Positions 52,733 through 55,567 of a DNA stretch of 64,000 nucleotides are shown here, one piece after another. The position numbers and the translations under genes are program-made. The DNA is from Bacteroides sp. (GTDB lineage: Bacteria > Bacteroidota > Bacteroidia > Bacteroidales > Muribaculaceae), in contig JAAVEA010000006.1 in assembly GCA_014801535.1 (NCBI GenBank), forward strand, positions 51,433 through 115,432, in the 5' to 3' direction. Each line of letters opens with the position of its first letter. The stretch's first letter is position 1. The notes beneath the pieces were generated by a model. That model was not told the DNA's origin. It did not search any database and saw only the letters and a list, made by a program, of their open reading frames with translations.

Positions 52733-53245
52733 TTATTCTAATTCCATCATATCAAAAAACATTAATCGGGTGTGATCGTTTTCTATTTTTTCTGAAAGTA
52801 ACTTAAAATCATTCTTTTTGTAAAAATCGATTGCAGACATATATGCATCAACTGTTATATATCGAAAGGCTGAGTAATTTGGATTCTCGTTAAGCATCCC
52901 TTTAAGAAGATTCATTAGATCGGTTCCAATATGCTGTCCCTTGTATTTTGAAGAGACAGCAAACCTTCCAATCTTAATTGCAGGATAACTGCCGAAGTGT
53001 TTTCGTTCAGGAAAACTTCCTTTTATTCGTTTCCATTGGCTATTAGTGACATCTTGTCGGCTTATTTTATCATTCAATAGACAAAAATACGCAACAATAT
53101 TGCCTTCATCTTCCAGAATGAAGGTATTGGCTATTCTTTTTTCAAGAAAACCTTTGGCATCATCAATTAGGAAACTGTTTAAATCATCATCCTGACAGTC
53201 AAAATCGATTAATTCAGTAGATGGAGTTAATTTAACAAGCTTCAT
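52733..53245 (-). CDS. GNAT acetyltransferase, toxin-like (AtaT/TacT type)
   Basis: FDCQDDDLNSFL, PAIKIGRFAV...KGQHIG, ITVDAY..AIDFYKKNDF. Confidence 0.8.
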   Translation of the reverse strand: MKLVKLTPSTELIDFDCQDDDLNSFLIDDAKGFLEKRIANTFILEDEGNIVAYFCLLNDKISRQDVTNSQWKRIKGSFPERKHFGSYPAIKIGRFAVSSKYKGQHIGTDLMNLLKGMLNENPNYSAFRYITVDAYMSAIDFYKKNDFKLLSEKIENDHTRLMFFDMMELE

Positions 53246-53251
53246 AAATAT

Positions 53252-53422
53252 TTATATGCAAATTGTGATGTACTCCTTAGCTTTCTTGATTGCTTCGTTA
53301 AGTTTTTTAGTATTTTCAGCCCGTTGTTCTTTACTTAGGCTTTCAACTTCTAATCTCAACCTCTCAAAGCGGAGAGCATCTTCGCCCTTTAAAACCGGAG
53401 TTTCTGCTATTGGTCTTGCCAT
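53252..53422 (-). CDS. Short putative antitoxin (56 aa)
   Basis: MARPIAETPVLKGEDALRF; 6 nt upstream of the GNAT gene; own TACCTTTG promoter at 53450-53457. Confidence 0.6.
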   Translation of the reverse strand: MARPIAETPVLKGEDALRFERLRLEVESLSKEQRAENTKKLNEAIKKAKEYITICI

Positions 53423-53515: not shown

Positions 53516-53932
53516 TTATCCTAATTCTCCCTGTATAACCTCGTCGTTTTCATTTGGAAAGATGCGTGGGGAATCAGTAAGCTCCGGCATTTCTCCTTCG
53601 TAAATAGAATCTTCCTCCTGAAGAAGCATTGAGGAATCGCTGATCACTTCTCCCATAAAATCTTCGTCTCCGTTATCTTTTGAAGCGCTGCCGCTGCATC
53701 CGGTCATAATCATAGCAGCTGAAATGCCGGCAAGCACCACAGCCTTTCCTACGCTTGAACGACGGCGAAGTTCTTCCTCAAGATAACGTACCTCTGCCTC
53801 GCATTTAGGGCACGTTCCGAGACAGTCGCCTTTGAAGCGACACTCGGATGTGGCAAACTCTATGCCGTTCGCTTCTGCAATTTGACGGCGTATCTCCTTC
53901 AATATTTTGCAAGTCTGTCTTCCTCGAGCCAT
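53516..53932 (-). CDS. Cys-rich-leader protein with internal lipoprotein signal and acidic tail carrying three GE motifs
   Basis: C8, C31, C37, C41, C44; RRR..hydrophobic..MTGC79; FMGEV, YEGEM, IQGEL. Confidence 0.8.
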   Translation of the reverse strand: MARGRQTCKILKEIRRQIAEANGIEFATSECRFKGDCLGTCPKCEAEVRYLEEELRRRSSVGKAVVLAGISAAMIMTGCSGSASKDNGDEDFMGEVISDSSMLLQEEDSIYEGEMPELTDSPRIFPNENDEVIQGELG

Positions 53933-53934
53933 TT

Positions 53935-54840
53935 TTATTCAATATTTTTTTGATGATCTTTCAATTTCCACCTTATCGGGAGAATCAACATTGTATTAAT
54001 CGGTTCCCCATTCCGAGTTCCGGGTGAGAATTTTGGAAGCAGACCCACAACACGCAATGCCTCTTCATCGAATGAGGGTGCAAGTCCTTTTACAACCTTA
54101 GGATTGCATACATTCCCTTCCTCATCAACTTCAAACCGCACAATCACACGACCTTCGACACCTTCGACACATCCGATTGAATCGGGATATTTGAGGTTCT
54201 GTCTGATAAAATCCATCAATGCCTTGTTACCGCCGGGAAATTCTGCCTGTTGTTCAACGATTTCTCCAAATATTGCTTCAGCAGGGGAGAGTGTGATTGA
54301 AACATCCTTCATTTCTTTAGTCACGATGATGTTTTCTGTTTTATAGCCAACATAGCCGATCTCAAGAGTATCACCGACGCACGCTTTTATATTGAAGTTC
54401 CCTTCTAAATCGGTGGCAGTAATTATGCCGTTGGCTTTATTGTTAACCGTGGCCCCGATAAGAGGTTCGGCCAATATTTCACCTTTCTCATTTCCAACGC
54501 TGTCAGCTACGATTCCTTTAATAGTAATCGTATCGCAGGCACAATGGTTCGGCACAGATAATTCCTGTTTATTATACGGTTTTTCGGCATTAACAGTAGT
54601 AGGTATAATCATGGCAAGCAACCCGGCTGAAATTCCCGCAAGTTTTATAGCGTTCCCTTTTTGTTTGTGGGAACGTAACATTTCTTCTAAGTACCGCACC
54701 TCTGCCTCGCATTTAGGGCATGTTCCGAGACAATCGCCTTTGAAGCGACATTCGGAAGTGGCAAACTCTATGCCGTTCGCTTCTGCAATTTGACGGCGTA
54801 TCTCCTTCAATATTTTACAGGTATCTTTTCCTCGTGCCAT
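53935..54840 (-). CDS. Cys-rich-leader protein with internal signal, carboxypeptidase-regulatory-like domain and TonB C-terminal domain
   Basis: Same 53-aa leader; EPLIGATV..TDLEGNF..YVGYKT; EFPGG..NLKYP..GRVIVRFEVDEEG..EALRVV. Confidence 0.85.
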   Translation of the reverse strand: MARGKDTCKILKEIRRQIAEANGIEFATSECRFKGDCLGTCPKCEAEVRYLEEMLRSHKQKGNAIKLAGISAGLLAMIIPTTVNAEKPYNKQELSVPNHCACDTITIKGIVADSVGNEKGEILAEPLIGATVNNKANGIITATDLEGNFNIKACVGDTLEIGYVGYKTENIIVTKEMKDVSITLSPAEAIFGEIVEQQAEFPGGNKALMDFIRQNLKYPDSIGCVEGVEGRVIVRFEVDEEGNVCNPKVVKGLAPSFDEEALRVVGLLPKFSPGTRNGEPINTMLILPIRWKLKDHQKNIE

Positions 54841-54842
54841 AA

Positions 54843-55466
54843 TCAGTGTGTGCGTTTTTGATAAGTGAATAAATCAAACCGTTTGAAATCAAGCGATTCA
54901 AGAAAGTTCCTGCTCCTCATCCGGTCATCATCAGTATTAAAGTCAGGAATGAGTGGAAGGCGTATTATGCAATCCTGTTCTCTTTTCTCTCGGGCGATAT
55001 ATCTAAGGTTTTCTATTACAAGCTCATTGCTTTTCCCGGTATATTGCCGATATATCTCCCGATTCATATCCTTCACATCAATGATAAGGGAATCTATTAC
55101 CGGAAGTAGGTGTTTTACATTTTCTACCGGAACGTTAAGGGAAGTTTCCAGATTAAGATGCCATTCCGGCCCGCAAATTATTCGAAACTCCGTAATGAAA
55201 TTAGCGTATAAAGCTGGTTCCCCTCCTCCGAATGTTATTCCTCCGTTAGTTGCAAGAAAATAAAGCTCATCAATTCGGGTCTCTTCATATAGTTCCTTCG
55301 GTGAATACTCCTTAAATCGGTTTGACTTCACCAATGATTGCGGGTTGAGACAGTAAAGGCAGTTTAACGGACATCCATGGAATGCCACAAGAGTAGTCAC
55401 ACCGTCACCATCTGTCGAGAGACGGTGACGTGCTATACCAATTATATTAGCGCGTGGATTATCCAT
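54843..55466 (-). CDS. Radical SAM enzyme, PFL-activating-enzyme-like (207 aa)
   Basis: DGDGVTT, FHGCPLNCLYCLNP (CX3CX2C), GGITFGGGEP, LETS, IDVK, IRLPLIP.FN; TATATTTG promoter at 55487-55494. Confidence 0.88.
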   Translation of the reverse strand: MDNPRANIIGIARHRLSTDGDGVTTLVAFHGCPLNCLYCLNPQSLVKSNRFKEYSPKELYEETRIDELYFLATNGGITFGGGEPALYANFITEFRIICGPEWHLNLETSLNVPVENVKHLLPVIDSLIIDVKDMNREIYRQYTGKSNELVIENLRYIAREKREQDCIIRLPLIPDFNTDDDRMRSRNFLESLDFKRFDLFTYQKRTH

Positions 55467-55531
55467 AAGAAGAGTTATCTGTTTGGCAAATATATAAAGA
55501 ATAATTGACTTTATATGTGACAAATGGCACA

Positions 55532-55567
55532 AATTAGGCGGACGCACTAAGATGCATCCGCCTAATT
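55532..55567. terminator. Hairpin downstream of tnaA
   Basis: AATTAGGCGGA...TCCGCCTAATT. Confidence 0.6.

Follow-up and report, generated by a model that had tools for sequence, protein, structure and literature searches.

Radical S-adenosylmethionine (SAM) enzymes of the activase type figure, in the excerpts of PMC13450708 cited here, solely as producers of glycyl radicals on glycyl-radical enzymes (GREs) and on a spare-part protein; papers given by PMC number are cited throughout from excerpts of their text. Other radical SAM enzymes act on protein-sized targets, as in the Crp system of Methanococcus voltae, where CrpA and CrpB have about 47 N-terminal residues in common, followed by repeated cores, and the adjacent CrpC modifies CrpA (PMC13692751). 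Here we analyse a locus in a stretch of 64,000 nucleotides (nt), the window, from contig JAAVEA010000006.1 of a Bacteroides sp. assembly (GCA_014801535.1, Muribaculaceae), in which the gene of a 207-amino acid (aa) radical SAM enzyme precedes those of two exported proteins with a common five-cysteine domain at their N-termini. The resulting enzyme-domain system is real, widespread and apparently undescribed. Our literature searches, whose scope ended short of subscription journals and supplements, returned no description of the pair, and the excerpts of PMC8939145 and bioRxiv 2025.11.18.689179 do not mention it; the original prediction, made from the sequence alone, likewise pointed to no characterised system of this architecture.

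That prediction had described three minus-strand genes behind their own promoter and had proposed that a constant leader guides modification of variable envelope cargo in the manner of peptides that are made on the ribosome and modified after translation (RiPPs). Its account of the locus agrees with the sequence. The three open reading frames (ORFs) lie in tandem (Table 1), separated by gaps of 2 nt, from which we infer co-transcription; the enzyme carries the motifs CPLNCLYC and GGGEP; and the N-termini of the two exported proteins are identical in 51 of 53 residues (143 of 159 nt), a likeness that continues through the signal peptide (61 of 73 residues). The cargo is as described, a mature lipoprotein of 60 aa from Cys79 that includes 17 Asp or Glu residues, and CarbopepD_reg_2 and TonB_C domains in the 301-aa protein, while neither the 138-aa protein nor the shared N-terminus scored above any Pfam cut-off. 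Contrary to the original statement, the two cargoes are not wholly unrelated: a Gly-motif segment occurs in both, and relatives of the lipoprotein often run on for 250-390 aa, many of them reaching a TonB_C domain.

In this layout the system resembles Crp and the QhpD/QhpC pair, which also combine an adjacent radical SAM enzyme with a protein-sized target, and Crp further in its partners, whose N-terminal regions are near-identical and whose C-terminal motifs are repeated (PMC13692751). Unlike the window enzyme, CrpC has a RiPP recognition element (RRE) and a SPASM domain and installs its Cys thioethers within cores rich in Cys (PMC13692751). In the window the enzyme is of the activase type, the cysteines belong to the N-terminal domain, the repeats are acidic and centred on Gly, and a signal peptide stands between the two regions. 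The arrangement is that of a RiPP precursor, with a constant 56-aa head and variable tails enriched in Gly repeats. The system works like Crp, uses an enzyme like the pyruvate formate-lyase activating enzyme (PFL-AE) and belongs to neither family. Apparently new are the parts and their arrangement, whereas the leader-guided logic has precedent in Crp and QhpD.

Enzyme and domain are inherited together. Co-occurrence was counted in whole-genome draws, which avoids the bias of sets selected by locus. Kin are not independent, but presence is patchy within genera. The counts are near-perfect: among 151 genomes of the window's own family the domain was found in 48, the enzyme in 48 and both in 47, the lone enzyme-only copy having an internal stop; in a second Bacteroidales family (that of G340; 251 genomes) all 28 genomes with the enzyme fall within the 29 with the domain, and the domain-only genome has kept an enzyme fragment; and in relatives both parts occur in the same 6 of 60 genomes. 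The clade is thus present in about a third of the sampled genomes of the window's family, and it extends to Lachnospiraceae, with two split loci in clusters of that name. The domain is concentrated in gut families, since no more than 3 of 300 other genomes drawn from across the order had a clear copy; cassette loci were seen in Duncaniella muris, Heminiphilus faecis and Segatella copri. Domain copies outnumber enzymes (88 matches against 51 in the own family) and can sit at unlinked loci, reaching six to one in genome G731 and four to one in G173. Among 76 loci selected by the domain, some of which share one genome, the enzyme lies within 1.4 kb in 67 (within 30 nt in 53), 6 end at a contig edge and 3 lack the enzyme; two of these three genomes encode it elsewhere and one retains a 25-residue remnant. 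No third gene is conserved at the cassette loci, the commonest neighbour being found at 24. The system is mobile, as indicated by the enzyme on 13 viral contigs and by a cassette on the Segatella copri plasmid NZ_CP137558.1 (L226), where two genes annotated 'energy transducer TonB' and one annotated 'radical SAM protein' adjoin a relaxase gene, mobC and transposases.

The enzyme matches the Pfam families Radical_SAM (PF04055, 67.2 bits against a cut-off of 29.5) and Fer4_12, and the three cysteines of its CxxxCxxC motif are invariant in 54 sequences. Its assignment to the PflA-like activases was correct for the fold. Like PflA (PDB 3C8F/3CB8) and other GRE activases it has a minimal radical SAM fold with CxxxCxxC and GGE motifs (for the latter see PMC10267522), and D19 and N41, invariant in the 54 enzymes, equal Asp16 and Asn38 of PFL-AE, which hydrogen-bond the peptide of Gly734 (PMC9326890); in PFL-AE, C5' and the Gly Calpha are about 3.9 A apart (PMC13450708). 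Membership in the activase family did not hold. In contrast to GRE activases (TIGR02493, TIGR02494, NrdG), the enzyme stays below every NCBIfam activase cut-off (best TIGR02494, 133 against 174; PFLA, 100 against 232; NrdG, 26 against 126), and a quick maximum-likelihood tree places 27 clade members apart from 17 GRE activases and 2 NrdG proteins, across a long branch with a Shimodaira-Hasegawa-like approximate likelihood ratio (SH-aLRT) support of 99. The clade consensus reads DGxGVTT where activases have DGPGxR, and its partner is the 56-aa five-Cys domain, often fused, instead of a GRE. At 20 control activase loci we found a Gly-loop ORF in 12, DGPGxR in 19 and the five-Cys domain in none.

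No GRE was noted originally in the window, and the genome as assembled (only 65.6% complete) gave no Gly_radical or PFL-like match; PF01228 was not found in six carrier genomes, our own and five relatives, including assemblies that are 99% and 93% complete. Four of five other carrier genomes do have a PF01228 match; since a GRE is found in some carriers and not in others, the enzyme and PFL-type GREs are independent. The own genome encodes NrdD, and an NrdG-like gene adjoins it. Annotation gives clade members no name beyond 'radical SAM protein' or 'PFL activating enzyme', the Joint Genome Institute (JGI) using 'pyruvate formate lyase activating enzyme' for some. The clade enzyme is not a housekeeping activase. 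Nor did Pfam or NCBIfam reveal an RRE, a SPASM/twitch match or, as noted originally, a SPASM extension in its 207 residues.

The shared N-terminus is a 56-aa domain that matches 2,695 clusters at 50% identity; the matching clusters in the Atlas are all unnamed. In 203 dereplicated copies C8, R15, C31, C41 and C44 are essentially invariant, and a fifth cysteine occupies position 37 (78%) or 36 (22%). The domain belongs to no Pfam or NCBIfam family. Comparison with PDB sequences gave nothing below an E value of 0.27, a C-x5-C-x3-CP match to SdhB at 1.8 being insignificant, Foldseek found no match to the domain alone, and the VIA structure comparison returned generic helical matches only (best Z 5.8). 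The own genome has just two copies, both in the window. In most split cases a signal peptide of the lipoprotein or signal peptidase (SPase) I type, as assigned by hydropathy and motif rules, follows the domain, and the cargo among 150 top representatives is mainly TonB_C (65) and CarbopepD_reg_2 (37). A minority lacks a signal peptide, carries HIRAN or serpin domains and is cytoplasmic, and some copies are stand-alone small genes. In Flavobacterium-type proteins the signal peptide is preceded by a Cys-rich head of another kind, with a similar linker and TonB_C cargo. As a side observation, the Cys domain is joined by an acidic linker with Gly motifs to HIRAN, with no signal peptide, at L009, L115, L151, L174, L188, L191, L195 and L161, the last being one enzyme-domain-HIRAN chain; L194 has serpin cargo.

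The two partners also occur as one protein. In genome G026 enzyme and domain form a single ORF, and 117 of the 120 top clusters that match this fusion contain both parts, enzyme then domain, in natural chains of about 275 aa. The tree interleaves fused and split forms, and the fused label requires five changes, at least two of them forced by starred branches. Because the domain is fused to the C-terminus of the enzyme, mostly without cargo, it is more than a leader. The proposed RiPP-like logic is supported as regards a dedicated pair with a layout of leader and repeated core; the notion of a mere leader for envelope proteins does not hold as stated in view of the fusions, the cytoplasmic HIRAN and serpin proteins and the stand-alone genes.

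Enzyme and domain are predicted to form a compact two-domain fold: AlphaFold2 gave one compact model of the fusion with a short flexible linker, a predicted local distance difference test score (pLDDT) of 93 and a predicted template modelling score (pTM) of 0.90. Its best fold match is PFL-AE, over residues 1-206 (Z 22.5, root-mean-square deviation (rmsd) 2.3, 199 residues aligned). The match to MoaA (Z 13.3, rmsd 4.6, 203 aligned) ranges from 12 to 265 and reaches into the domain, as do those to BlsE, anSME and PqqE. Because the twitch/SPASM enzymes align into the domain and PFL-AE stops at 206, the alignments, for which VIA gives ranges as end points only, hint that the partial barrel would be shut on its open side by the domain, seemingly where twitch and SPASM domains sit. 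The C-terminal position in the fusions and a C-x5-C-x3-C spacing are likenesses to SPASM/twitch enzymes such as MoaA, anSME and SkfB (PMC6231123). Of the seven-Cys SPASM motif CX9-15GX4C..CX2CX5CX3C..C, as given in the same excerpt, the five cysteines match only the C-x5-C-x3-C part, and unlike SPASM or twitch domains the five-Cys domain is a predicted helical hairpin, finds no match in Pfam or NCBIfam and is usually detached on the partner protein. Apparent inter-domain pairs in an enzyme-domain covariation analysis (289 pairs, effective sequence number (Meff) 137) were rejected as phylogenetic signal; they did not exceed within-group shuffles (maximum z 5.2-6.6), they failed to recur in the fused and split subsets, and the strongest pair survived a neighbour swap.

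Behind the domain, the tails carry a repeat of the form hydrophobic-x-Gly-[DE]-hydrophobic at 6-14 times the shuffled frequency, a figure weakened by the fact that the motif was spotted by eye, defined post hoc and then refined, in tails that are related to each other. It was counted 211 times against 39 in shuffles (210 tails) and, in its refined form, 108 times against 16.8 (132 representative tails). The 16 fusion tails have 9 copies against 1.0, and 25 short tails with little else have 29 against 2.1, 19 of them being positive. In 22 held-out tails the earlier pattern occurred 16 times against 4.5, a 3.6-fold excess and more than the maximum of 13 in 500 shuffles, with 13 tails positive. 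Enrichment was slight or nil in the controls, which were leaderless TonB_C proteins (4 against 1.6), leaderless CarbopepD proteins (1 against 1.5) and acidic ORFs (26 against 22). The motif is also found in Lachnospiraceae lipoproteins and in the cytoplasmic HIRAN and serpin proteins. At 14 fused loci there are 14 acidic leaderless ORFs with 5 motifs against 1.4, a value reached by 6 of 500 shuffles, compared with 7 such ORFs and no motif at 158 split loci; this subset was chosen post hoc and is narrower than a test of all neighbours. Leaderless acidic neighbours of fusions lie, for example, at L104:6654-6974, L123:1698-2039 and L008:3260-3745.

Co-inheritance, fusions, a separate clade, the retained Gly-loop anchor residues and motif enrichment characterise the enzyme-domain pair. 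As to its function, we tentatively favour a leader-guided modification of glycines in domain-headed proteins before export, a reading to which we give a little less than an even chance. The five-Cys domain would probably dock as a lid that binds a metal or an Fe-S cluster and would offer its acidic tail to the enzyme, so that the 5'-deoxyadenosyl radical could take the Calpha hydrogen from a Gly of the tail repeat. The cluster putatively held by the domain might then take one electron from the Gly radical, leading to a cross-link or a backbone cut. One-electron oxidation by the auxiliary clusters of SPASM and twitch enzymes has been proposed elsewhere. Modification would take place in the cytoplasm, after which signal peptidase would remove the domain. 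The fused forms may be leader-primed enzymes that act in trans on leaderless acidic neighbours; in RiPP systems, engineered leader-enzyme fusions are constitutively active (PMC13003496). In its most extended version, an activase lineage would have been redeployed as a maturase of exported and cytoplasmic proteins, with a detachable auxiliary redox domain that rides on the substrate as a cofactor-bearing leader in front of the signal peptide and whose docking completes the active site; oxidation of glycines in the acidic linker repeats would yield cross-links or cuts in the backbone and thereby govern how TonB-type cargo is set free, and fusions would be leader-primed forms that process leaderless neighbours. 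Taken as a whole, this version seems unlikely to us. If true, a domain that is both the C-terminal part of an enzyme and the head of its substrate would represent a new recognition principle, and the domain could serve as a transferable tag that directs Gly chemistry to specific sites of proteins. Natural single-chain fusions and precursors of short length open the question to direct tests in cultured gut species that are harmless.

Several observations weigh against glycine modification of the tails, which, like its site and the chemistry of each step, is hypothetical. Only 16 of 117 fusions have a tail of at least 15 residues behind the domain, and 101 have none. The clade consensus has Thr in place of the Arg of DGPGxR, which is found in all 19 controls whose motif was displayed. 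Of 93 metagenome and viral loci selected by the enzyme, through a query biased towards loci where both parts occur, 12 had no domain in the fetched flank, next to 11 fused and 70 split ones; the 12 represent about six contexts, and five of these loci share one Bacteroides cellulosilyticus context. Nine of the 22 held-out tails lack the motif, in particular those with CarbopepD cargo, and the 301-aa window protein has a near-match only. When all immediate neighbours of fusions are pooled, they show no enrichment (6 against 3.4), and some acidic neighbours adjoin SPASM maturases that could own them. The motif 3' of CarbopepD sits where SusC has an LDEVVV segment, presumably TonB-box-like in its role, and for this reason the motif may be one for binding and not the site of reaction. 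Finally, G39 inside the domain, present in 202 of 203 dereplicated copies, is at least as conserved as the tail motif.

The conservation of G39 invites an alternative in which the domain itself is the substrate. As in GrcA/YfiD, a mini glycyl-radical domain would receive its radical on G39 of the CxG[TSC]CPxC loop, and cleavage by O2 or a Cys cross-link would gate export or release. GrcA is a small partner given a radical by an activase, the predicted helix-loop-helix of the five-Cys domain is like the glycyl-radical domain of GREs, and oxygen cuts the backbone at glycyl radicals (PMC13450708). Cargo-less fusions would be self-contained under this scheme, and the kept equivalents of Asp16 and Asn38 would find their use. 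The loop, however, is unlike the GRE fingerprint RVxG[FWY] (PMC13450708), and the domain lacks a PF01228 match and has five cysteines. G39 lies in a likely metal-binding Cys turn, where a Gly may be structural, and neither the selected Gly repeats of the tails nor the benefit of self-modification in cargo-less fusions is explained. We consider a radical on G39 improbable.

A comparably low probability attaches to the domain being an auxiliary Fe-S or metal subunit only, with a small molecule, a lipid or an unrelated protein as the substrate, the signal peptide as a membrane tether and Gly repeats that are TonB-box-like. The C-terminal position in fusions, the overlap with the ranges of twitch and SPASM domains and the four invariant cysteines with a fifth in one of two registers are in accordance with such a role, and the predominance of TonB_C and CarbopepD cargo would suit the TonB-box part of it. 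It is harder to reconcile with the many unlinked domain copies that often accompany a single enzyme, with the lack of a third gene family common to the loci and with the persistence of the motif in cytoplasmic HIRAN and serpin proteins and in Lachnospiraceae, which are monoderm and are not known to have TonB.

Five conserved cysteines could also indicate that the enzyme makes thioether cross-links with the domain's own Cys residues, as in sacti- and ranthipeptides, the product being a modified domain freed by signal peptidase. A radical SAM enzyme that cross-links a protein through thioethers is known (PMC13692751), but the enzyme shows no RRE or SPASM match, the domain is permanently part of more than 100 enzymes, and near-invariance suits a folded cofactor site more than a diversifying core, which makes this explanation quite unlikely. 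That an ordinary PFL or NrdD activase merely travels with envelope genes on variable islands, as PFL-AE being the closest solved structure, the JGI label and the plasmid cassette beside a relaxase and mobC might suggest, is hardly credible in view of the scores below all NCBIfam activase cut-offs, the separate clade, the six carrier genomes in which no PF01228 was found, the pairing of NrdD with its own NrdG, the control activase loci devoid of the domain and the fusions.

Expression of the locus from its own promoter, as claimed originally, is supported by the element upstream of the enzyme gene: at related loci, 80 of 146 upstream regions contain TAnnTTTG, compared with 12.4 after shuffling. 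A consensus TTTG -33 element at the usual spacing was not seen at the window promoter. About 35 nt upstream of TAnnTTTG lies a palindrome whose distance is constant in the 24 of 159 upstream regions that contain it (0.36 in shuffles) and that resembles a site of Crp/Fnr-type regulators. A gene for a regulator that binds cyclic nucleoside monophosphates (cNMP) is located near the cassette at 19 loci. In the own genome (G000) four other promoter-bearing sites are preceded by the palindrome at similar spacing; the four are C9:1776, C14:86948, C16:10000 and C24:14674, and a further site, C11:55246, has a shorter spacing and may be due to chance. The palindrome precedes several genes of uncharacterised membrane or secreted proteins, which in relatives are recurrent cassette neighbours as well. 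The inverted repeat farther upstream was not listed by a terminator scan.

Table 1. Features of the enzyme-domain locus, with positions counted from the first nucleotide of the window.
Feature	Position	Strand	Basis
Radical SAM enzyme, 207 aa, start ATG 55466; PFL-activase-like fold, own clade; D19 = Asp16, N41 = Asn38	54843..55466	-	
301-aa pre-protein: Cys domain, likely SPase I signal peptide, CarboxypepD_reg-like domain, TonB_C	53935..54840	-	
Five-Cys domain copy 1, residues 1-56 of 301-aa protein; C8, C31, C37, C41, C44, G39	54673..54840	-	
Likely Sec signal peptide, residues 57-85 of 301-aa protein, predicted cleavage VNA/EK	54586..54672	-	Sequence reading and hydropathy classes of relatives
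CarboxypepD_reg-like domain of 301-aa protein, best Pfam stretch residues 124-194	54259..54471	-	
Near-motif IFGEI at end of CarboxypepD_reg-like domain, 301-aa protein	54259-54273	-	
TonB C-terminal domain of 301-aa protein, residues 226-293	53962..54165	-	Pfam
138-aa pre-lipoprotein: Cys domain, signal peptide II, 60-aa acidic tail	53516..53932	-	
Five-Cys domain copy 2 (138-aa protein); predicted helix-loop-helix, pLDDT 91	53765..53932	-	
Likely lipoprotein signal peptide of 138-aa protein, lipobox IMTG/C (Cys79)	53696..53764	-	Sequence and lipobox class in relatives
Gly-centred repeats of 138-aa protein, three copies, candidate modification sites	53522..53659	-	
Repeat FMGEV (138-aa protein; Gly is G94)	53645-53659	-	
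Repeat YEGEM (138-aa protein; Gly is G113)	53588-53602	-	
Repeat IQGEL (138-aa protein; Gly is G135)	53522-53536	-	
Bacteroidetes-type TAnnTTTG promoter element TATATTTG	55487..55494	-	
Palindrome GTGCCATTTGTCAC, consensus G[GT]GACAWWTGTC[AC]C, likely Crp/Fnr-family operator	55517..55530	-	Recurrence in upstream regions
GC-rich inverted repeat 3' of upstream beta-eliminating-lyase gene, likely that gene's terminator	55535..55564	-	By eye

Further observations concern the surroundings of the cassette in other genomes. A 333-aa DMP19-like membrane protein is repeatedly encoded between the enzyme and the domain gene (L004, L032, L042, L065, L066, L072, L120, L152). One chromosomal context carries the enzyme either with a domain gene (L172) or without it (L125, L131, L140, L141, L143); the solo form is that of the cluster named Bacteroides cellulosilyticus, and the two forms offer a natural comparison pair. 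At L101, L103 and L104 the fusions adjoin SPASM peptide maturases, which match TIGR04133 with 488 bits at L103 and are CcpM-like, below cut-off, at L101, and acidic precursor-like ORFs nearby end in C-x-C-R-x-E-C-K-Y-N-T-G. TIGR04133 (rSAM_w_lipo), a model of Bacteroidota SPASM proteins, presumably describes radical SAM enzymes paired with lipoproteins, to judge from its name, and stems from the same phylum; in contrast to the member that adjoins the fusion at L103, the window enzyme does not match it. Just downstream of the locus, at 52733-53422 on the minus strand, a 56-aa ORF is followed by a gene for a 170-aa GNAT acetyltransferase, a layout that resembles that of a GNAT toxin-antitoxin pair.

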